A stretch of 64,000 bases of DNA from an uncultured Lachnospiraceae bacterium (GTDB lineage: Bacteria; Bacillota; Clostridia; Oscillospirales; CAG-272). This document shows, one piece after another, positions 35,898-45,941 of this stretch (positions are counted from its first letter, which is position 1; each line of letters begins with the position of its first letter). A program made the translations under genes and the position numbers. A model generated the notes under the pieces. That model had not been told where the DNA came from. It searched no databases and saw only the letters and a program-made list of their open reading frames with translations. The stretch is from positions 627 through 64,626 of the forward strand of contig CAYWVC010000001.1 of the NCBI GenBank assembly GCA_964461635.1, written 5' to 3'.

Positions 35898-36392
35898 ATG
35901 GTATGTAAATTTTGCGGCAAAGAGATCGAGGACGGCTCAAAATTCTGTCCCGATTGCGGTAAGCCGTTGATCGAGGAGGAGATCACACCTCCCGAGCCGG
36001 CAACCGATTCAAAGCAATCCGATGCCCCGGCAGAAAAGAAAAAGGAAGGCGAATGGAACGTATTGTCTATCGTTGCATTCTGCATCACGATGGGCGCTGT
36101 GCTTCAGATACTCTCGTTCGGCGGCTTGACCTACATAGCAACGCTCGTGCTCGGCATAATTGCGCTCAATCAGATCAAGAAGGATCCGTCACAGCAGGGC
36201 AAGGGCTTTGCCGTTGCAACCGTTATAATTTCTGCCGTTTCTCTCGGCATTGCATTGATCGGCGGAATCGTTGTCGCTGTCCTGAGTATTTTGGGAATGG
36301 CTATACCTGCGTTTTTCGAATTGCTTTTCGGCGGACTTTTCAATGCCTTCTTTGACGAGCTTATTGGTGAAATAATGATGTTCATCATCTGA
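35898..36392 (+). CDS. Zinc-ribbon plus DUF4190-like membrane protein
   Basis: 164 aa. CKFCGKEIEDGSKFCPDCG zinc ribbon, Pro/Glu linker, two or three TM helices. Confidence 0.75.
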   Translation: MVCKFCGKEIEDGSKFCPDCGKPLIEEEITPPEPATDSKQSDAPAEKKKEGEWNVLSIVAFCITMGAVLQILSFGGLTYIATLVLGIIALNQIKKDPSQQGKGFAVATVIISAVSLGIALIGGIVVAVLSILGMAIPAFFELLFGGLFNAFFDELIGEIMMFII

Positions 36393-36414: not shown

Positions 36415-36939
36415 ATGCTTTGCTCGAATTGTAACTCGTCGGTCAGCGACGGTTGCGTATTTTGCCCGATCTGCGGATCAAAGCTTGAGCTTAAGGAGGA
36501 TGCTCCCGCAGTTCCCGAAGCTGCCGAGCCGACGCCCCAAACTGCAACGGACAGCGCTCAACAGACTGTTGAGCGGACAGAATGTCACGCGGCTCCGGTT
36601 GCACCGACCCCTTCATCGGATTATTCCACCCGCCCCGTTAACGCTATCGCGATAACCGGTTTTATTTTAAGCTTTTTCTCGATGGGAACCGGCGCACCGT
36701 TCTTTCCCGCGGCGCTTACGCTGTGCATCGTCGGATTGGTGATCGGCATTAAATATTGGAACGGAAGCGGCAAGGGCTTTGCCATAGCAGGTATTGTGAT
36801 TTCCGTTGCGCTTGCGTTGCTGTTTTGGATCGGCATTATCTTTTTCGTACTGCTCTGCATAATAATGGAGGCAGAGGGGCCCGCAAACGTTGATGGCGGC
36901 GTTCAGATCGCCGCCGCCCTGATCGGTTACTTCGCTTGA
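36415..36939 (+). CDS. Zinc-ribbon plus DUF4190-like membrane protein (tandem paralogue)
   Basis: 174 aa. CSNCNSSVSDGCVFCPICG, linker, TM helices. Same architecture as the preceding gene. Confidence 0.75.
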   Translation: MLCSNCNSSVSDGCVFCPICGSKLELKEDAPAVPEAAEPTPQTATDSAQQTVERTECHAAPVAPTPSSDYSTRPVNAIAITGFILSFFSMGTGAPFFPAALTLCIVGLVIGIKYWNGSGKGFAIAGIVISVALALLFWIGIIFFVLLCIIMEAEGPANVDGGVQIAAALIGYFA

Positions 36940-36968: not shown

Positions 36969-38459
36969 ATGAAAAAATACATCATACCCTTTACCGCCGC
37001 AATGCTTCTTTGCGGCATGGCGTTTTCATCTTGTACACCCGCTTCGGTTCCGCCGACAGAGAGCTCCGATGACGCATCCGATTCGGGCAACCGCATTCCT
37101 GCAACCGACAGCGTTCAGGATGACGTATCCTCCGACGGGACGGCGGATCCGACACCGATCGAGGCTCCCAAATCGCTTAAGGTCCTTGCGATCGGCAACA
37201 GCTTCTCCACCGATTGTATGCAATATCTCTATGAAATGCTGAAAGACGGAGGAGTAGAAAATGTTGTGCTCGGCAATCTGTATTACGGCGGATGCAGCCT
37301 GGCACAGCACCTTGATTTCGCAACCAACGGTAAAGCGGAATACAAGTATTACAAAAACACGTCGGGTTCGTGGGAAAAGACCGAAAATTACCTCTTATCG
37401 GATGCCTTGAAGGATGAGCAGTGGGACTATATCACCTTTCAGCAGACCTCAAAGACCTGCGGACTTCAATCAAGCTACGGCAAGACTCTGACCGAGCTTG
37501 TAAATTATGTGGAGGAGCGCGCTCCGGAGGGGGCAAAATTCCTTTGGAATATGACGTGGGCGTATCAGCAGGACAGCACGCATTCATCCTTCCCGAAGTA
37601 TGATAACGATCAGCAAAAGATGTATAATATGATACTTGATTGCGTGGAAAACTGCATTAAGCCCGAAACCCGCTTCGTCGGCATTATACCGTGTATGACG
37701 TCCGTGCAAAATGCGAGAACGTCCTTCCTCGGCGATACCTTGACCCGTGACGGATACCATATGGATTATTACATAGGAAGGTATGTTGTGGGTCTTACGT
37801 GGTTCTGCGCATTGACGGGGCTTGAGCCCGATGCGGTCAGCTTCAATCCGTCATCGGCTATGATATCGGACGATATGATTGCCGTGGCGCGTGAAGCCGT
37901 CGCCGCCGCGATCAGCAATCCGTACAGTGTGACTCAATCGAAGATCACCGAGGGCAAGCGCGGCGAAGGTGTTCAGACCGACAATCCGTCGATCGAGCTT
38001 GATCCCGCAGACTTCTTTGAGGCGGATAAGCGCTTGGCAGCCGGATATAACGTTGACCTTTCCAACTATACGCTTTACAAATGGGAGTATTCCGAAAATC
38101 AGTATTGGTATTGCACGAAGCAAACGACAAAGGTCACGCCCAAATCAACAGCCGGTGCGTATCAGCAAAACGTTTGCACCAAGGTCCTGCATTCGACCGC
38201 CGATATCCCCGTCGGAAGCATTATTATAAGCGATGAGGGATGGCAGTACCGTATGGAGATATTCCCGAATGCCACCACGAAATACACCGGCAGCCGTCCG
38301 GGTATCACGACCGCGCGCTTTTTCGTATTGACGGATGAGTTCTTGAACGGATGCACATATATGGGCTGGAACGTTTCAAGCAACCCGAAGAGCGATATAT
38401 CGTCGATCTACGCTCAGGCAGCGTGTCACGTTCGCGTATACGTTCCGAAAAACAGTTAA
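36969..38459 (+). CDS. SGNH/DUF4886-like lipoprotein with a C-terminal extension
   Basis: 496 aa. Lipobox AFSSC. LKVLAIGNSFSTDCMQYL (the GNSFS block typical of DUF4886/SGNH). Confidence 0.6.
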   Translation: MKKYIIPFTAAMLLCGMAFSSCTPASVPPTESSDDASDSGNRIPATDSVQDDVSSDGTADPTPIEAPKSLKVLAIGNSFSTDCMQYLYEMLKDGGVENVVLGNLYYGGCSLAQHLDFATNGKAEYKYYKNTSGSWEKTENYLLSDALKDEQWDYITFQQTSKTCGLQSSYGKTLTELVNYVEERAPEGAKFLWNMTWAYQQDSTHSSFPKYDNDQQKMYNMILDCVENCIKPETRFVGIIPCMTSVQNARTSFLGDTLTRDGYHMDYYIGRYVVGLTWFCALTGLEPDAVSFNPSSAMISDDMIAVAREAVAAAISNPYSVTQSKITEGKRGEGVQTDNPSIELDPADFFEADKRLAAGYNVDLSNYTLYKWEYSENQYWYCTKQTTKVTPKSTAGAYQQNVCTKVLHSTADIPVGSIIISDEGWQYRMEIFPNATTKYTGSRPGITTARFFVLTDEFLNGCTYMGWNVSSNPKSDISSIYAQAACHVRVYVPKNS

Positions 38460-38471
38460 TTAAATTATTCT

Positions 38472-38517
38472 AAAAGAAGCATAGGCGAGACTTTAAAAGT
38501 CTCGCCTATGCTTCTTT
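38472..38517. terminator. Bidirectional terminator (46-nt perfect palindrome)
   Basis: aaaagaagcataggcgagacttt|aaagtctcgcctatgcttctttt. It abuts the stop of the minus-strand gene at 38517. Confidence 0.8.
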
Positions 38518-39092
38518 TAGCGCTTACAGCCGTTTTTACGGGATGAGGCAGAGCCCTTCATCCCAAGCTTGTCCCGCAACCTCAATATGTAAAGAACTAT
38601 TATTCTTGAAAGCATAAGATCGTACAGAAAAAACGTAAAATTCCCGCAGGCGTAGAGCACAACGTATGCCCACGCGTTGCTAAGCCCCGGAATAAGTGAC
38701 AGGTCGACGTTAGGAAGGAAGAAGTGACAAAATATCACGATTACCGTCAGCACAACGTTGAAGAACCCGAATTTCCCGATCAGCGCGGGGATTTTGCGCA
38801 GCCTCTCAAACCTTCGCTTAACCGCGGGATAATATCCGGCAAGCAGATATATGACCGCCGGGAGCTTATTCGGCAAAATAAGGAATGCAATGGCGGAGGT
38901 CACGCCATAAGTGAGCCAAGGCCAATACTTTCCGTACTCGGTTACCGGTATTACGACAAGGATTGAGGCAAACATTGCCGCAGTCATATCGAGCACGTCG
39001 ATTATAGCTCCTAACCACAGGATCGTTACTCCGAGTGCCGATAGGGTTGCACAAACGGCAATGCACTTCGTTTTATCGGAGATACGGCTCAT
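38517..39092 (-). CDS. Polytopic membrane protein (last gene of the foldase/J-protein operon)
   Basis: 191 aa, 5-6 hydrophobic helices. ATGA overlap with the upstream J-protein gene. Confidence 0.65.
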
Positions 39093-39730
39093 CGACAGCC
39101 ACCGAAAATATTGCAGCAGCAGTTAACGCACGCAAGTGTTGAACAGATACTGCAAAGTGAGCAACCGTTACGGGTCGTTGAATAATACGTTCTGTTGTAT
39201 TGCTGAGTATGCGCCTTGAGCCCGTCACGGGCATTTTGATATTCCTGATTGTAGGGGTCCAAGGCACAGGCTCGGTCAAAAAAGCTCTGTGCATCTACGT
39301 AATGTCCACGTGCAACAGCCACCGCGCCGCTGAGAAAGAACCATTCGGCATCGCGCTTCTCTGCGGGTACAGTGGAAAGCAGGTATTCGGCGCGCTGGAT
39401 ATCACGGCTGTTGATAGCTACACGGATAGCGCGGTATAGCTCGTTCCCGGTGCCACCCTCGCTGTCCACTCGCGGTCCCCTTGAATAGCCGTACGCCGAC
39501 GAGGATGACGAGGATGATGCGGATGAAGAGGATTTTTTGCCCGAACGTTCGTTTTGAATATCCTCGTACGCGGCATTGATCTCCTTCATTTTCTCGGTAG
39601 CCATATCCGCGAGATCGGAATCCCTGTATTTATCGGGGTGATATTTGCGCGCCAGATTGCGGTACGCCTGCTTTACCTCGTCGTCCGATGCTTCCCGTGA
39701 GACTCCGAGTATCTTGTATGGATCATTCAT
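39089..39730 (-). CDS. J-domain protein with a Ser-rich linker, TPR-like region and Cys-rich C-terminal tail
   Basis: 213 aa. DPYKILGV...[13 protein letters not shown] (HPD motif). [12 protein letters not shown] linker. C-terminus [25 protein letters not shown]. Confidence 0.85.
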
Positions 39731-40607
39731 ACGAGCTTACTTTTCCTCCTGTCTTTCCAAATAGAACACGCTGTGCGGCATCCGGCATTCCCAAATGGAT
39801 AATGTTGTCGAGCAGCCCGAATATCTCCTTCTGCTCATCCGACCTTTCAAAGAGGTCGAGCGTGGCATCAAGCTTCATAAGCTCGGCGGTCAGCGCGTTG
39901 AACACGTCGCTTTTCCGTTCATCATTGAATGCACCGTCGGGGTAAGTCAGCAAAAAGGGATTGAAGCGCCCCGCCTTTCGATCTTCCTCAAAATCGTCTG
40001 CCGCGTCGATAACGTACAACCACCTGCCAAGGTGCATCCCCGCCGAGCGTGTCAGGCGTTCAGCCCCTCCGCTCAGCCCGTAGGAGAGCAGATCTGCCAA
40101 TGCCTCGCCGAAAATATCCGCCGGCATATCAACCGAGGGCTCGCGCCTTGCCTCAAGCTCTGATAACTTTGACAGAGAGCTCCTCAGCGCCTCGCTTGCG
40201 CCGGGAAGTGCTTCGGACGCACGTTTTTCCATACCGGACAGGGAAGTGCGAAGGAGCTGAGCCTTGTGCTTTTTTGATCCTTTTTCATCCACCGTATCGT
40301 CGTACGCTTTCTCGTATGAGAGCATTATTCCGGCTCTCGCGGCAAAGTCCAACGACGCGCAATCGGTTGCGGTAAGCAGCTTCTTCGACGGATGCGCAGG
40401 GCAACGCTCTTCGGTGACCTTCGGAGTTTCTCCGCAGGCTGCCATACGCAAAAGTGCCGCGAACACGAAGTCATAATTCAGCGTTAAGCGGGATGAGCAC
40501 CCGGTGCATTGCCCGAGCGAGCGGCACAAGCCGCAGTATACGGCTTTATAATAATCGTTTTCCCGAACCTTCAGCTCGGGGACAAAGGGTCTTACGTAAC
40601 CAAACAT
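39723..40607 (-). CDS. DUF5685 family protein
   Basis: 294 aa. [49 protein letters not shown] matches the DUF5685 N-terminus as I recall it. Confidence 0.7.
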
Positions 40608-40608
40608 T

Positions 40609-41838
40609 TTATCGCCTTTTTTTGTTTTTCAAAGTTATAATGATAACGGTAACTGCGATCCCCACTGCGCCGATTGCTACCGATACACCGATTATTATAA
40701 GGTTCCCGTCGGTGTTGCTTTGCGCCCCGGGCACCGTCGGATCGTATGTGATCCTGTCCGTGGTCTCCGTACCGCTATCTTCGATAAGGTACGCATAAAT
40801 ATCACGGTCGGTCGTTACCTCCGATTCCGCAAGCACCGTTCTGATGGCGTAATCCTTCATCAGCGCGATACGGCAATAGTCGGCACCGCCGAAATAGGCT
40901 TCAAGCTCCTCAACACTGACACCGGCAAGCTTGGCTTGAGCCTCTGCTTCGGAAGAGTAGAGCGCGTCGTCAAAGCGTATTCCGCGCTGATACAGGGCGG
41001 CGGCGAGAGCAATATCCTCTCTGATCGTTATACGGGCAAGAGCCTCAAGCTCCTCGTCGGTGTTCTCGGTGCTTGAATTTGCCTTTGTCCAACGGACGTA
41101 AAAATCGATTTGATCTTGAGGAAACGGCTTGTCAATAAGCTTTGTGCGCACGACAACCTCATCTGAAACGATACCGTAAAGAGTCGTGTCGTATGAATTC
41201 AGACTCTCAATGGCAAGATATTCGGCGATGAAGTGCTTAAGCTCTTCAACGCTTGAGTACTTGCCCTGAGTATAGACGTAGACGTCATTGTTTGTAAAGC
41301 GGTAGTCGCAGATATACTTGACCGTGATCTTATATTCGACCGTTTTGCCCGCCAGCTCCGGCTTATCCTCGTGATCCGCCGGATACTTGACCTTATTTGT
41401 GACCGTGACTCCGGGCATAATTCCATACAGTCCGATGTCAAAACCGTCGATAAATCCGCTATCGTTTGACAGAGTAAGCAATGCGTTCTTTGCGCTGTCA
41501 ACCTTTTCTCCGTCAATGCTGCCGACGTAATCTATGCAAAGAACGTCTCCGCCCGCGGTCGTGCGGGTCGTCAGCTCGCCGTAATATCCTCCGACCTTCG
41601 CCATTTCTACGTAATATTCGTTGACCGTCTCGTCGGTGGGCCACACGTTACATTCGATTTTAAGACCTTTGGTATTTGTATTATCAAGATCCACGTATGC
41701 GGAGATGTCGAAATCCTCGGCAAAGTAATCTATCGCTCCCGATACGGCAGTGCCGTCGGCATAAGAGTGAATGGCAAGCGGGAAGAGCAAGGTCAGCAGA
41801 ATACAGGCGGCAATTAACGATTTAATAACTTTTTTCAT
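40609..41838 (-). CDS. Exported trigger-factor-like FKBP-type PPIase with a C-terminal membrane anchor
   Basis: About 409 aa from ATG 41838. Signal peptide. GDVLCIDYVGSIDGEKV...GFIDGFDIGLYGIMPGVTV...LAGKTVEYKITV resembles the trigger-factor PPIase domain. C-terminal TM plus KNKKRR. Confidence 0.75.
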   Translation of the reverse strand: MKKVIKSLIAACILLTLLFPLAIHSYADGTAVSGAIDYFAEDFDISAYVDLDNTNTKGLKIECNVWPTDETVNEYYVEMAKVGGYYGELTTRTTAGGDVLCIDYVGSIDGEKVDSAKNALLTLSNDSGFIDGFDIGLYGIMPGVTVTNKVKYPADHEDKPELAGKTVEYKITVKYICDYRFTNNDVYVYTQGKYSSVEELKHFIAEYLAIESLNSYDTTLYGIVSDEVVVRTKLIDKPFPQDQIDFYVRWTKANSSTENTDEELEALARITIREDIALAAALYQRGIRFDDALYSSEAEAQAKLAGVSVEELEAYFGGADYCRIALMKDYAIRTVLAESEVTTDRDIYAYLIEDSGTETTDRITYDPTVPGAQSNTDGNLIIIGVSVAIGAVGIAVTVIIITLKNKKRR

Positions 41839-43091
41839 CAATTACTTTCCGTGCTGTTCGTCGTATCGGTATCAGATGGCGCGGCATCTGTTGACGGAGC
41901 CTCGGTATCGGTTGATTCCTCTAACAGATGTGAATATTGATCATAATCCGTCGTGATCTTGACGGAGGCGCGCAACGCTTTCATAGCCTTATCCTTCAGA
42001 ACGTAAAGCCTCATATACGTATCCCCAAGGTATTCGATAAGCTCCTCGGACGAATCGTATTCCCAAAGCTCGGCGAGCTCGGCAAGCTCAGCGGCATATT
42101 CGCTGTCGCTCAACGTCATACCGACGGATTTGGCGTAGGCAACGAGAACAAGGTCGCGCTTGACCTCCTCCTTGGCGTCTTCGGTGAGTTCCGACTCGGT
42201 CATTCCGAGCGCCTCAAGATACTGCTCAAACGACGTTATACCGTAGTAGTACTGAAACAGGACCTGATTGCTTTCATAATAGTTTTTGGCGGCGTTGTAG
42301 TTGGCATAGTAGTAATATTCTATTTGAGCCTGCGGCAGCTCCTTGAGCTCGGAGCGCTCAACGACAAGCTTGATTATCGCTTCTTCAACGTCGTCATCGA
42401 AATCGTTAAGATTGGCTTTTATAAGACTGTTCTTGGAGTATTCGCGGAACGCCTCGACTGTGGTATAATCGCCGTTGGTATACTCTGTGACGGTTTTGTC
42501 TGTGAAGCCGTAGGTCTTTATTATCCCCTGCACGGTAATGGCAAACGTTGCATTCTTGCCGGCAAGCGTTTCGGAATAATTATCGGGGAAGGTCACGTCT
42601 GTATTGACCGTTGTTCCGGGCATTATTCCGTAAAGATCCTTATCAAAGCCTTCGATATATCCCGTGCTTTCGGTAAGAGAAATAGTCGATCCTTCTGCAG
42701 TACCGCCGTCAAAGGCAACTCCGTCCATAGTGCCGACAAAATCAATTACGAGCACGTCACCCGCTTGTGTGGCTCTGTCGGTGATAAGCTCCGTATAGTA
42801 ACCGTAATTCTTTGCGATATTCAGCAGTACCTCGTCGATCACGTCATCTCCGACAGAGACGTTTTGGGTAACTTCCAGACCGTCACAGCTCCCAAGCACA
42901 ATGTATTGGCTAATATCGGCGTTGATCAGATCCATAACAGGGTGATCGCTGTCGACCGACGGGTTGTTGGCGGAACCCGAGCCGGAGGTGGTGTCATCGG
43001 GCTTGGTAAATTCAATATTCCCGCAGGAGGCAAGAAAAGTCGTGCATATCAAAAGCGCGGCAATCAGCAAGGTAAACGTTCTTTTTTTCAT
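41838..43091 (-). CDS. Trigger-factor-like FKBP-type PPIase lipoprotein
   Basis: 417 aa. Lipobox FLASC. GDVLVIDFVGTMDGVAFDGG...GYIEGFDKDLYGIMPGTTV...LAGKNATFAITV, plus a trigger-factor C-domain-like helical region. Confidence 0.78.
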   Translation of the reverse strand: MKKRTFTLLIAALLICTTFLASCGNIEFTKPDDTTSGSGSANNPSVDSDHPVMDLINADISQYIVLGSCDGLEVTQNVSVGDDVIDEVLLNIAKNYGYYTELITDRATQAGDVLVIDFVGTMDGVAFDGGTAEGSTISLTESTGYIEGFDKDLYGIMPGTTVNTDVTFPDNYSETLAGKNATFAITVQGIIKTYGFTDKTVTEYTNGDYTTVEAFREYSKNSLIKANLNDFDDDVEEAIIKLVVERSELKELPQAQIEYYYYANYNAAKNYYESNQVLFQYYYGITSFEQYLEALGMTESELTEDAKEEVKRDLVLVAYAKSVGMTLSDSEYAAELAELAELWEYDSSEELIEYLGDTYMRLYVLKDKAMKALRASVKITTDYDQYSHLLEESTDTEAPSTDAAPSDTDTTNSTESN

Positions 43092-43124
43092 AATGCTCTA
43101 TCCTAACATATAAATATTTATACT

Positions 43125-43153
43125 ATTATATCATAGATCGCCTCCCGTTTCAA
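43125..43153 (-). promoter_or_regulatory. Sigma-A-type promoter of the five-gene foldase/J-protein operon
   Basis: Minus strand: TTGAAA (43153-43148), 17-nt spacer, TATAAT (43130-43125). Confidence 0.55.
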
Positions 43154-43262: not shown

Positions 43263-43295
43263 GGGCTGTCTCAATTGCAAGAAATGAGACAGCCC
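43263..43295 (-). terminator. Rho-independent terminator of the Cys/Pro-rich protein gene
   Basis: gggctgtctca / tgagacagccc 11-bp stem, 11-nt loop, with a T-rich minus-strand flank. Confidence 0.7.
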
Positions 43296-43311: not shown

Positions 43312-44184
43312 TCAGGATCCGCAGCGCCTTGGCGGTCTGTCGGTGGGAGTCGGCGGCTGTACCGTAGTGATGCCAAATTCGTTGACCGGGAAAGTCATAT
43401 TACGGAAAACGCCGCAGGGATCGCTTTGCGTGGGTTCGGAGCATTCTTTGTCGGGAACGGTATATTCCGTCGCGTTTACGATGTACTGGGTCGGGCGAAC
43501 GAGCCTTACTATTGAAAACAGTCCGACGGTTGCAAGCAGTGCACGTGTGTCGTTTTGCGTTATTTCGCCGTCAAGCGATGCAACTATGGCATCGGGTATC
43601 GCCACAACGGTCCCCGGCACGGTAACGCACCCACAGCTGCAACCGCATCCGCGCACCGGCGGACAGGGAGGTGTCGGCGGGCAAACGGGCAGGTCAACTA
43701 CCTTGAGGTCAAGCACTATCGGTTCTACCGCTTCAACTACGGCGCCCGGAGCATTTGAAGCCCCGGTATATAACTCCGCCGTCGAGCAGAAGCCCGTGCC
43801 GGGAGTGCTTCGGAACACCTTTGCACCCGTTTCGCCACCGTAGAGCACGACCGTCTTGTCGAGAACGGCAATGCCCTCAAACTCCTGCGGGTTTCCGGTA
43901 GTGACGCAAGCTTCGCACGTTAATTTTACGTAATATCTTACGGATACCGAATAAAATCCGCGATTAAACTGTATTTGATCGACGCCGATGGAGGTGCCGA
44001 GTATCTCCGCATATTTTGTACGGACAGCTCCGGTCCCGGAGATCAAAGTATTTCCGTTAGCCGTGAGGTATACTTGCACGTTATTAAAACAATCCCGATC
44101 GCGGCAGGAATCAAGGATCCTGTTAGCTTCAATACAGACGGTATCTCTCGTTGACGTACCGACGGGAAATCTGCAATCTGCCAT
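43312..44184 (-). CDS. Cysteine/proline-rich hypothetical protein (possible spore-coat or envelope component)
   Basis: About 290 aa from ATG 44184 (SD aaggagg 9 nt upstream). No signal peptide. CIEANRILDSCRDRDCF, PVCPPTPPCPPVRGCGCSCGC. Confidence 0.6.
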   Translation of the reverse strand: MADCRFPVGTSTRDTVCIEANRILDSCRDRDCFNNVQVYLTANGNTLISGTGAVRTKYAEILGTSIGVDQIQFNRGFYSVSVRYYVKLTCEACVTTGNPQEFEGIAVLDKTVVLYGGETGAKVFRSTPGTGFCSTAELYTGASNAPGAVVEAVEPIVLDLKVVDLPVCPPTPPCPPVRGCGCSCGCVTVPGTVVAIPDAIVASLDGEITQNDTRALLATVGLFSIVRLVRPTQYIVNATEYTVPDKECSEPTQSDPCGVFRNMTFPVNEFGITTVQPPTPTDRPPRRCGS

Positions 44185-44337
44185 AGGTATAAGTCCTCCT
44201 TGTTTGAATTTAAGAAGCCTCAAATAACTTCTTTCGATATCATAATATGCCGTTCAACAGGATGTGACACGTTTTTTCGTTAAAAGACGCAAAGCATATT
44301 TTCAACTTTTTTAAAAACGTGAGCATATTTGTAAGCA

Positions 44338-45246
44338 ATGAATATCATTTCCCGGCATAACTTCCGCGTCGGTGATAAAAATAATTTTGACCCGAATTTT
44401 CGGGATCGCAACGATCAAAGAAAGGAAGCCCGATATCGGGTTATAAACAACGTGAAAAGGATCGTATCGACCTTTGCGGGCGTTGCCGCGGCGCTGGCAT
44501 TAACGTTATGTCAGGTTGGCGCCGTCGGTTCGCCCAACGGGGCTTTCAATTGGTATTGTATGCGCAACGCGGATCACAGACAACCGGTCTGCGATCCCTC
44601 AATGCGCTTTATCGAGGATTATGACGGCTATTACGTGGATCACCGTTACGGCGACGATTGTAAGGAGAAGGTCATATATCTGACCTTTGACGCCGGATAT
44701 GAAAACGGGAACGTCGAAAAGGTACTTGACGTACTCGGCTCCGAGGGGGTTAAGGGCTCATTCTTTATTTTAAGTCATCTTGTGAAATCTTGTCCCGAAC
44801 TCGTACAGCGAATGACAGATGAGGGGCACGCCGTGTGTAATCATACGTCAAAGCACAAGGATATGACCAAGTATCACAGTGCCGAAGAGTTTGCCGCAGA
44901 GCTACGTGAGCTTGAACAGATCTACAAGACAACAACGGGGAAGGAAATGTTTAAAATATACCGTCCCCCCGAAGGCAGATTCAGCGAGGAAAATCTGAAA
45001 ATCGCGAATGAACTCGGATACAAGACCGTGTTCTGGAGCTTTGCATACGCGGATTGGGATAATGCTAATCAGCCCGATCCGGATATCGCGCTCAAAAAGA
45101 TACTTGACAACGTGCATAACGGCGAGATAATGCTGCTTCATCCGACCTCGGAGACGAACGTGAGGATACTCGGGAGCTTGATCCGCGAGCTCAAAGCAAA
45201 AGGCTATTCATTCCGTACCGTGAACAGCTTGGGGGACGCACGATGA
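44338..45246 (+). CDS. pdaA: Delta-lactam-biosynthetic de-N-acetylase (PdaA-like polysaccharide deacetylase)
   Basis: Colinear with B. subtilis PdaA as I recall it (NWYCMRN..HRQP, IYLTFDAGYENG, GHAVCNHTSKH, YRPPEGRFSE, TVFWSFAYADW, LLHPTS). The start is uncertain (no SD at 44338; GTG 44452 is an alternative). Confidence 0.85.
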   Translation: MNIISRHNFRVGDKNNFDPNFRDRNDQRKEARYRVINNVKRIVSTFAGVAAALALTLCQVGAVGSPNGAFNWYCMRNADHRQPVCDPSMRFIEDYDGYYVDHRYGDDCKEKVIYLTFDAGYENGNVEKVLDVLGSEGVKGSFFILSHLVKSCPELVQRMTDEGHAVCNHTSKHKDMTKYHSAEEFAAELRELEQIYKTTTGKEMFKIYRPPEGRFSEENLKIANELGYKTVFWSFAYADWDNANQPDPDIALKKILDNVHNGEIMLLHPTSETNVRILGSLIRELKAKGYSFRTVNSLGDAR

Positions 45247-45941
45247 GAAGCTTTCCGCGCAAGCTTGTATGCTTTCTCATCGCGGCTCTTATCTGCCTTG
45301 CCGCCCCAATGCGTGCGTCGGCAGAGAACTGCCGCATCTATGGGCATTGCAAAAACGAATCAAAGCTCATAGCACTGACCTTTGACGACGGACCTCATCC
45401 GAAGATAACTCCGACCGTGCTTGATATTCTCGCCTACTACGGTATTAAAGCGACCTTCTTTGAGGTGGGAAGCAACGTGGAGAATTACCCCGAGACGGCT
45501 CGGCGCGTAGCAGAGGAGGGGCACGAGATCGGCAATCACACCTACTCGCATCCCCACGTCAGCAATATTGATCAAATATCACTTGAGAAGGAAACAGACT
45601 CGTGTGCGGAGGCGATATTCAGGATAACCGGCGTTCGCCCCGTACTTTTCCGCCCGCCCGAGGGCGTGATCGACAGCGCGGTCAAGGTAATGTCCTCCGA
45701 CCGCGATTATTCGGTCATACTTTGGAGCATTGACACAAGGGATTGGGCAGGCACGTCTGTCGATGCTATAGTAAAAAATGTAACTTCCAATGTCAAATCG
45801 GGTGATATAATCCTTATGCACGATTATGTTTCACCGAAATGCAATACGGTTGCCGCGCTCAGAATAATTATTCCCGAACTGCTCGGCAGGGGATATACCT
45901 TCGTCACTGTCAGTAAACTTATAGAAGAAATGCAAGATTAA
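45243..45941 (+). CDS. Polysaccharide deacetylase family protein (NodB domain)
   Basis: 232 aa. Signal peptide. LTFDDGPH, GHEIGNHTYSHP, FRPPEG, LMHD motifs. Confidence 0.88.
   Translation: MRSFPRKLVCFLIAALICLAAPMRASAENCRIYGHCKNESKLIALTFDDGPHPKITPTVLDILAYYGIKATFFEVGSNVENYPETARRVAEEGHEIGNHTYSHPHVSNIDQISLEKETDSCAEAIFRITGVRPVLFRPPEGVIDSAVKVMSSDRDYSVILWSIDTRDWAGTSVDAIVKNVTSNVKSGDIILMHDYVSPKCNTVAALRIIIPELLGRGYTFVTVSKLIEEMQD

Follow-up and report, generated by a model that had tools for sequence, protein, structure and literature searches.

A conserved three-gene cassette of Clostridia joins DUF5685, with a predicted isoprenoid-synthase fold, to a cysteine-tailed J/TPR protein and a membrane protein: a candidate for protein prenylation

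Eukaryotic J proteins can be lipidated, as exemplified by Ydj1 and DNAJA1-2, which are farnesylated on a CaaX motif, and by the cysteine string protein DNAJC5, which is palmitoylated. The comQ gene adjoins the gene for its substrate peptide, ComX. ComQ, PalQ and ChrPC (P domain) are isoprenoid-synthase-fold enzymes that prenylate peptides, with PalQ requiring an acceptor residue at the peptide terminus and the characterized trans-isoprenyl diphosphate synthase (IDS)-like peptide prenyltransferases using Trp as acceptor and having in common a Gln directly ahead of their second Asp-rich motif (PMC13290415). In a 64,000-nucleotide stretch of contig CAYWVC010000001.1 from an uncultured Lachnospiraceae bacterium (the whole stretch is called the window below), we have analyzed a minus-strand operon whose last three genes encode a DUF5685 protein, a J-domain/tetratricopeptide repeat (TPR) protein that ends in a cysteine string, and a polytopic membrane protein. 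These three genes form a conserved cassette, and we tentatively surmise that the first of its products may prenylate the second.

The first-pass annotation of this DNA had read the operon as one five-gene system, in which the three genes above are preceded by two genes for exported trigger-factor-like foldases (TF1 and TF2). The neighborhoods of related genes were compared in two directions. For the forward test, the alignment of DUF5685 was scanned over one genome per species, yielding about 590 matching stretches, of which the best 80 were fetched; the hosts were Oscillospiraceae, "Eubacteriales" and other Clostridia metagenome-assembled genomes. The J/Cys-tail gene came next after DUF5685 in 76 of these 80 genome loci and the membrane-protein gene was third in 72, with constant order and strand, the exceptions being mostly contig ends. 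For the reverse test, metagenome contigs were chosen solely by DNA encoding CCCEC[MC]GGDLI (as a degenerate pattern), giving 80 loci; the J protein was present in 78 of them, DUF5685 lay upstream of J in all 63 loci with room for it, and the membrane protein lay downstream of J in 70 of 72. As both tests agree on the trio, the conserved unit runs from DUF5685 through the J/TPR/Cys-tail gene to the membrane-protein gene. The J gene starts before the DUF5685 gene has ended in 80 of 126 loci (median -4 nt), and the gap between J and the membrane-protein gene has a median of 12 nt. These data showed an obligate and tightly coupled co-occurrence of the three cassette genes, with the membrane protein as the least obligate of the trio; across the loci with readable neighborhoods, DUF5685 was almost always accompanied by the Cys-tailed J/TPR protein. 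In the same comparison, synteny breaks down for both foldase genes: orthologs of TF1 (full-length) and TF2 adjoin the cassette in only one of the 80 genome loci (L001, from the closest relative, with a DUF5685 that is 74% identical to that of the window), and no trigger-factor-like gene adjoins it in 77 of the 80 and in every metagenome locus checked. TF1 and TF2 are lineage-specific additions before the cassette and lie outside the conserved unit. At three genes, the cassette is smaller than the system first proposed, and it is far more widespread: the DUF5685 family comprises, in clusters at 50% identity, 5,937 clusters at E <= 1e-3, 4,355 at E <= 1e-10 and 1,691 at E <= 1e-30. Cassette hosts number in the hundreds among gut Clostridia, chiefly uncultured members of the Oscillospiraceae and other Clostridia of humans and ruminants. 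The earlier statement that this is not a described system agrees with our literature searches on DUF5685, bacterial cysteine-string J proteins, Cys prenylation and the sequence motifs, which found no account of this gene combination.

DUF5685 (39723-40607, minus strand) is a soluble protein of 294 residues that matches Pfam PF18937 over residues 1-277 (profile positions 1-269 of 272) with E = 1.4e-65 and 221.8 bits vs. a cut-off of 26.7. Its AlphaFold2 model (predicted local distance difference test [pLDDT] score 90.1, predicted template modeling [pTM] score 0.89) is all-helical except for a hairpin at residues 64-80. When this model was compared with the PDB by Foldseek, all of the top 50 matches were trans-polyprenyl diphosphate synthases, the best being 5zlf_C at E 6.5e-4, with query-normalized template modeling (TM) scores of 0.38-0.57 among the matches with a probability of at least 0.97. 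As judged by the model, DUF5685 has a class-I isoprenoid-synthase fold, the match being moderate and not strong; this predicted fold, unseen in the first-pass annotation, changes which mechanism is most likely for the locus. Among 122 unique DUF5685 sequences, residues C25, C28, C69, D103, D107, Y198, D201, D205, D209 and N216 are invariant; one third of these sequences have N, S or K in place of H72, and C34 is found in less than half. In the model, the acidic motifs lie where helices 84-107 and 180-204/206-212 reach their C-terminal ends. By hhalign, D201/D205/E208/D209/R214 fall on N168/D172/E175/D176/R181 of the dehydrosqualene synthase CrtM (E 0.012), where N168/D172/D176 form the Mg2+ triad, and D103/D104 fall on IspA's first Asp-rich motif (E 0.42), with references that were single sequences, 100% identical to PDB 4e9u_A and 1rqj_A, respectively, which keeps these statistics weak. 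Weak as they are alone, the two alignments agree with the fold match, and DUF5685 harbors two putative acidic motifs for binding Mg2+ and diphosphate. The three fixed cysteines and variable fourth position follow a pattern known from thiol-alkylating Zn sites, e.g. those of MetH and BHMT. A polyprenyl synthase gene was sought in the window and the fetched loci as the basis of a comparison profile, and none was found there. We propose DUF5685 as the catalytic component of the cassette.

The J/TPR/Cys-string protein (39089-39730, minus strand; 213 residues) carries the J domain with HPD that had been called at first reading, as expected of a class C J-domain protein, with a Pfam DnaJ match of 2.8e-18, the J domain at residues 3-62 and HPD at 31-33. 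The J domain is followed by a Ser-rich low-complexity linker, a TPR region at about 100-165 (about two repeats, weak in Pfam, with a profile search of the PDB matching consensus TPR proteins down to E 3e-25) and the Cys tail. This tail, with the consensus GCSxCDxCSxLxCADCCCECMGGDLIxCC and 9-10 cysteines, is kept in 76 genome loci and 78 metagenome loci; it is positioned at the extreme C-terminus, ending in CC in 53 of the 76 genome-set proteins (70%) and placing a Cys within the last two residues in nearly all of them. The tail of the window protein contains no acidic residue, and its stretch at 192-210 is scored as a hydrophobic segment. Across 131 J-protein sequences, C196 and C206 are each present in 130, vs. 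111 for H31 and 115 for D33 of the HPD motif, so that, at the level of sequence, the Cys tail is better conserved than HPD. HPD is lacking from a clade of J proteins (L087, L091, L093, L100, L116, L148, L153 and L162) and from the Ruthenibacterium ortholog of L081 (7340-7999), where DPE, SDS, QED, GDE, HAE and others stand in its place and the CCCECMGGDLIPCC tail is retained. Position 72 of the accompanying DUF5685 is N, not H, in most of these loci. Because these proteins keep the tail, it seems that the tail, rather than Hsp70 stimulation, is indispensable. One further locus (L011:7945-8433) has after DUF5685 a gene for a 162-residue J-less protein, comprising a TPR region and a longer Cys/Asp tail, CCDCLYCCDCDGDGSCCDGPDGCCDCCDCSDGCN.

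The third gene of the cassette, last in the operon (38517-39092, minus strand), encodes a protein of 191 residues from an unnamed family and is confirmed as a multi-helix membrane protein. Its AlphaFold2 model (pLDDT 87.6) has seven helices of at least 4 residues and then a short C-terminal one. The top seven Foldseek matches are S components of energy-coupling factor (ECF) transporters, led by RibU 3p5n_A (E 0.086, TM 0.53/0.58), and the S-component matches as a group are weak (E 0.086-1.9, query-normalized TM 0.39-0.53). The window protein has no Pfam, NCBIfam or PADLOC match, and more than 120 homologs, which were gathered by an alignment-based repeat of a single-sequence search that had given 9, have no significant Pfam match or annotation; ECF_trnsprt appears faintly in 3 of 35 family members, with a best E of 0.44. 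K92, K107 and D158 are invariant and P74, K76, Y88, P89, E96 and Y168 nearly so, and the conserved polar residues K92, E96, K107, Y168 and R173 appear to lie on the cytoplasmic side, as judged by the reading of the helices and the positive-inside rule. A search covering the conserved flanking gene families and those portions of the window that were annotated showed no EcfA/EcfT module; one may exist elsewhere in the genome. This is a new family, with a fold whose resemblance to ECF S components is predicted and weak: in common with RibU and FolT, the protein is small (~180 residues), polytopic and all-helical, and it differs from them in having neither a significant ECF_trnsprt match nor EcfA/EcfT nearby.

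Taking the models, the sequences and the analogy to known enzymes together, we speculate that DUF5685 is a Mg/Zn-dependent prenyl-diphosphate transferase which S-alkylates the tail of the J protein, thereby tethering a DnaK co-chaperone to the membrane, a reading to which we assign a probability of about 0.3. Equally tentatively, the cassette would then be the first endogenous bacterial system for protein S-prenylation, docked at a membrane protein resembling an S component. DUF5685 would act in the cytoplasm, with D103/D107 and D201-D205-D209 (plus N216) binding Mg2+ and a prenyl diphosphate, be it farnesyl-, geranylgeranyl- or a longer polyprenyl-diphosphate, and with C25, C28, C69 and a variable fourth ligand holding the Zn2+ that would activate the thiolate. 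The acceptor would be the Cys-string tail encoded by the adjacent gene, commonly ending in -CC; once S-prenylated, the tail would act with the ECF-S-like protein to keep the J/TPR protein on the cytoplasmic side of the membrane, where J proteins with intact HPD (~85% of lineages) may recruit DnaK. In the lineage of the window, two exported foldases were added before the cassette under a sigma-A promoter. Metal binding, the prenyl donor, the role of the tail as acceptor, membrane anchoring and DnaK recruitment are all steps that we infer. Among the sequence features, the C-terminal placement of the tail, its -CC ending and the acid-free hydrophobic tail in the window favor lipidation.

A number of findings weigh against prenylation of the tail. 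The 9-10 cysteines far exceed the needs of an anchor, most tails hold 3-4 acidic residues between their cysteines (CDxC...CADCCCEC..GGD), and the longer tail of the J-less protein in L011 looks, from its sequence, more like a metal-binding one. The fold match is only moderate, with most TM scores around 0.5 and a best E of 6.5e-4, and the hhalign probabilities are low (3.6% for CrtM and 0.1% for IspA). In permissive Pfam scans, 44 DUF5685 members had no match to polyprenyl_synt, SQS_PSY or terpene synthases even at E <= 10, and indeed to nothing besides DUF5685, and comparison of DUF5685 with the PDB by sequence, whether as a single sequence or as a profile, returned only noise. The Gln that precedes the second Asp-rich motif of ComQ, PalQ and ChrPC is absent from DUF5685, which reads Y198-[IV]-x before D201, and all characterized enzymes of that kind act on Trp whereas the J tail is without a conserved Trp. 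The membrane-protein gene is truly missing in L006, L029 and L079, and we know of no endogenous protein S-prenylation in bacteria.

The acidic residues amid the tail cysteines and the tail in L011 suit metal binding better than membrane insertion, and one alternative is that the tail is a metal-binding module (a Zn-thiolate site, an Fe-S cluster, or a store of Ni, Co or Cu) rather than a site of lipidation. DUF5685 would then be a metallo-enzyme of isoprenoid or lipid metabolism, with the J/TPR protein as its dedicated metallochaperone or maturation factor, and the membrane protein would handle the hydrophobic substrate or product of this enzyme. Chaperones with Cys-rich metal sites are well known, including the zinc finger of DnaJ, the C-terminal tail of SlyD, and HscB with IscU. 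A tail rich in Cys and Asp/Glu, with CxxC spacings and a steady count of 9-10 Cys, conforms to such a role, as does the CCDCLYCCDCDGDGSCCDGPDGCCDCCDCSDGCN ending of a TPR protein that is devoid of a J domain, and DUF5685 owns an invariant three-Cys site. What metal binding leaves unexplained is the extreme C-terminal position of the tail with its -CC ending in 70% of genomes, the strong conservation of its non-Cys positions (L199, GGDLI), and the retention of the tail in the window despite loss of all its acidic residues; nor do we know of any metallochaperone that is paired with an isoprenoid-synthase-fold protein. We regard it as nearly as likely as prenylation, and it is not mutually exclusive with lipidation of the tail. 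If true, it would still define a new dedicated chaperone/enzyme pair in isoprenoid metabolism.

Genes for S components often adjoin those for salvage enzymes, and the trio could likewise be a module for uptake or salvage, in which a vitamin or lipid of isoprenoid type, for instance a quinone or polyprenol, is bound by the membrane protein and converted by DUF5685, with the J/TPR protein only assisting in assembly or regulation. In keeping with this, the seven best structural matches to the membrane protein are vitamin-binding ECF S components, 3 of 35 members of its family give a faint ECF_trnsprt match, and the fold predicted for DUF5685 is one that binds isoprenoid diphosphates. The Foldseek E-values are, however, weak (0.09-2), with no significant match to a Pfam S-component family, no ECF ATPase or T component is found in the annotated open reading frames of the window or the flanking families, and the membrane protein is the member of the trio most often dispensed with; the invariant, coupled Cys tail would also be left unexplained, making a salvage module unlikely in our view. 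The original proposal was that all five genes form one system for envelope or spore-coat assembly, coupling a cytoplasmic Hsp70 co-chaperone to extracytoplasmic peptidyl-prolyl isomerases (PPIases). One promoter and translational coupling do unite the five genes in the window genome and in L001, two other genomes encode a trigger-factor-like lipoprotein upstream of the cassette, at 0.7 or 4.5 kb, and SpoIIR or a polysaccharide deacetylase precedes it in a few. Against these stand the 77 of 80 genome loci, and all checked metagenome loci, where trigger-factor-like genes do not adjoin the cassette, the sigma-A-type promoter that the cassette possesses for itself in relatives, and the lack of any other conserved flank, and we hold a five-gene system to be quite improbable. 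Both the salvage and the five-gene readings are less likely than prenylation or metal binding.

As for the operon as a whole, all five genes of the minus-strand array were located where the first-pass annotation had placed them (38517-43091), and its domain calls (Trigger_C/FKBP_C, DUF5685, DnaJ with HPD, and two Cys motifs) were all recovered with Pfam and NCBIfam. The junctions also proved to be as described, with TGATG between TF1 and TF2 (TGA at 41840-41838, ATG at 41838-41836), a 1-nt gap between TF2 and DUF5685, an 8-nt overlap between DUF5685 and J, and a 4-nt ATGA between J and the membrane-protein gene; a TTG that lies in frame at 41841, the codon before this ATG, is a possible alternative start for TF2. 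The sigma-A-type promoter at 43125-43153 (minus strand; TTGAAA, 17 nt, TG-extended TATAAT) matches the consensus at 11 of 12 positions, is the top site in a scan of 7 kb, and is 34 nt from the TF1 start codon. Taken in full, the scan shows no enrichment (11 sites vs. 8.1 +/- 2.8 in shuffles), so this call rests on position and quality and not on statistics. A weaker sigma-70-like site within TF2 (41298-41269, 10 of 12 matches) may be an internal promoter. The palindromic terminator that was reported at the end of the operon is present as a hairpin with a 24-bp stem and 3-nt loop (minus strand), overlapping the stop codon of the membrane-protein gene, with a fold energy of -40.2 kcal/mol (z = -10.9) that was unmatched by any of 200 shuffles in RNA folding; it is slightly longer (38470-38520) than the 46 nt given for it. 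As it lies between two convergent units, it may serve both the operon and the DUF4886 gene at 36969-38459 on the plus strand. A separate hairpin at 43263-43295 (-21.4 kcal/mol, z = -3.8), 3' of the upstream Cys/Pro-rich gene, closes that gene and supports 43153 as the 5' boundary of the operon.

TF1 (41838-43091, minus strand; 417 residues) is exported as a lipoprotein and combines an FKBP PPIase with a C-domain, both trigger-factor-like, as reflected in Pfam matches to Trigger_C (3.4e-11) and FKBP_C (8.1e-7), and TF2 (40609-41841, minus strand; 410 residues) is its paralog, with an N-terminal signal, a C-terminal transmembrane anchor and a match to FKBP_C (2.2e-5); the two cross-match at 1e-38 to 8e-45. 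The lack of a ribosome-binding N-domain in either protein, as had been predicted, is evident from matches to TIGR00115 that begin only at model positions 105-106 (TF1, 106-409 of 410, 143 bits; TF2, 105-401 of 410, 79 bits), both below the cut-off of 180.2. The predicted modes of tethering were likewise upheld, with TF1 displaying a signal peptide, the lipobox TFLAS-C at residue 23 and a hydrophobic segment at 4-28, and TF2 displaying hydrophobic segments at 1-28 and 377-407 followed by KNKKRR. These proteins share with trigger factor (TIGR00115) the FKBP PPIase and the trigger-factor C-terminal chaperone domain and differ from it in the missing N-domain and the sub-cut-off scores; like PrsA, they are exported and membrane-tethered, with an FKBP as PPIase in place of the parvulin of PrsA. 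Lone trigger-factor-like lipoproteins are encoded upstream of the cassette in two distant relatives, at L010:632-1720 (0.7 kb, lipobox LAAC) and L013:1449-2522 (4.5 kb), a weak recurrence that is possibly non-random.

In many relatives the cassette carries its own sigma-A-type promoter, 60-110 nt upstream of the DUF5685 start (in loci between L002 and L079, e.g. L002, L019 and L026), with the architecture (A/G)TTTACA(A/G), 7-8 nt, a -35-like TTG(T/C)A, 17 nt, and a TATAAT-like -10. This composite motif was found in 35 of 112 non-redundant upstream regions vs. 0.18 expected from shuffles, and in some loci two of its elements form the inverted repeat TTTACAA...TTGTAAA; the conserved upstream motif could be a regulator binding site. 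The window does not contain this motif, and its cassette is transcribed from the promoter ahead of TF1. In the upstream DNA of L010, L013 and L029, an AraC-type gene appears to end directly before the cassette promoter.

No flanking gene family is found in more than 13 of the 80 genome loci, the flanks being mostly housekeeping genes, and YicC, RemA, guanylate kinase, PriA, SpoIIR, acyl-ACP thioesterase and iPGM (each in at most 13 of 80) were rejected as parts of the system. SpoIIR is the immediate upstream gene in 7 loci, and acyl-ACP thioesterase lies within a few kb in about 9 (e.g. L036:6180-6896 and L081:12723-13445); neither association is general. A reading of the genes as anti-phage defense was also rejected, as none of six proteins matches PADLOC. 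The hint of a role in spore coat or envelope, which had been drawn from the genes upstream of the operon, is weak, given that both the Cys/Pro-rich gene and pdaA recur only in L001; a polysaccharide deacetylase does lie upstream of the cassette in one Ruthenibacterium locus. The Cys/Pro-rich protein of the window (43312-44223, minus strand; 303 residues, containing PVCPPTPPCPPVRGCGCSCGCV) has no Pfam, NCBIfam or PADLOC match, and its only homolog among the fetched loci is in L001. Beyond it, two polysaccharide deacetylase genes adjoin each other at 44338-45941 on the plus strand; the first of them, the gene called pdaA, is only pdaA-like, with a score of 266.8 bits to the pdaA model TIGR02884 that falls below the cut-off of 298. 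On the other side of the operon, tandem genes at 35898-36392 and 36415-36939 (plus strand) encode two small membrane proteins that are paralogs and both have a zinc ribbon at the N-terminus; the first additionally matches DUF4190.

If prenylation of the tail proves to be true, the cassette would embody a protein-lipidation chemistry new to bacteria, present in hundreds of species of gut Clostridia, as well as a new route for placing Hsp70 at the membrane; DUF5685 would be an unrecognized branch of isoprenoid synthases and possibly a Cys-prenylating biocatalyst that is independent of CaaX, and its partner would be a bacterial counterpart of the farnesylated Ydj1 and the palmitoylated cysteine string protein. 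The question of whether bacteria lipidate cysteines with isoprenoids by an enzyme unrelated to eukaryotic prenyltransferases can now be tested. Our models provide DUF5685 with a predicted fold and a candidate active site, and a new family of membrane proteins has been defined.

How does the cassette compare with the systems that it most resembles? With ComQ, PalQ and ChrPC, DUF5685 shares the predicted isoprenoid-synthase fold and the Asp-rich motifs, and the terminal acceptor required by PalQ has a possible parallel in the C-terminal -CC of the J protein. The adjacency of comQ and comX is mirrored by that of DUF5685 and J, which speaks to neighborhood only and not to a substrate relationship; ComX is a secreted pheromone whereas the putative acceptor here is a J/TPR protein of ~200 residues, and DUF5685 has an additional three-Cys site and beta-hairpin and no detectable relation to these enzymes by sequence profile. 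The CrtM, IspA and IspB synthases (PF00494, PF00348) again have the predicted fold in common with DUF5685, which, like them, has its first motif, K-x-x-D-D-x-x-D, at the C-terminus of a long helix; N168-D172-E175-D176-R181 of CrtM aligns residue for residue with D201-x3-D205-x2-E-D209-x4-R of DUF5685, albeit with weak statistics. DUF5685 is shorter between the two motifs, adds a CxxC...C site with the hairpin at 64-80 and, unlike these synthases, is paired with a Cys-tailed TPR protein.

Turning to J proteins, the cassette member resembles DNAJC5 and Ydj1 in having an N-terminal J domain with HPD and a Cys cluster near the C-terminus, and a membrane-tethered Hsp70 co-chaperone is the outcome to be expected here as well, with lipidation being putative. 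Beyond the J domain no homology to DNAJC5 or Ydj1 was detected, and about 15% of the bacterial Cys-tailed J proteins have lost HPD; the cysteine string protein has no TPR, whereas the middle of the cassette protein is a TPR. The partner enzyme belongs neither to the DHHC acyltransferases nor to the CaaX prenyltransferases of alpha/beta type: the repeats of CaaX/Rab prenyltransferases have no Pfam match in any cassette protein, and the DUF5685 model is not an alpha-alpha barrel. The cassette thus lies outside the ComQ family, the CaaX/Rab prenyltransferases, the curated polyprenyl, squalene and phytoene synthases, and the curated S components. By analogy, it appears akin to two known kinds of arrangement, namely a peptide prenyltransferase encoded beside the gene for its substrate and a J protein tethered to the membrane.

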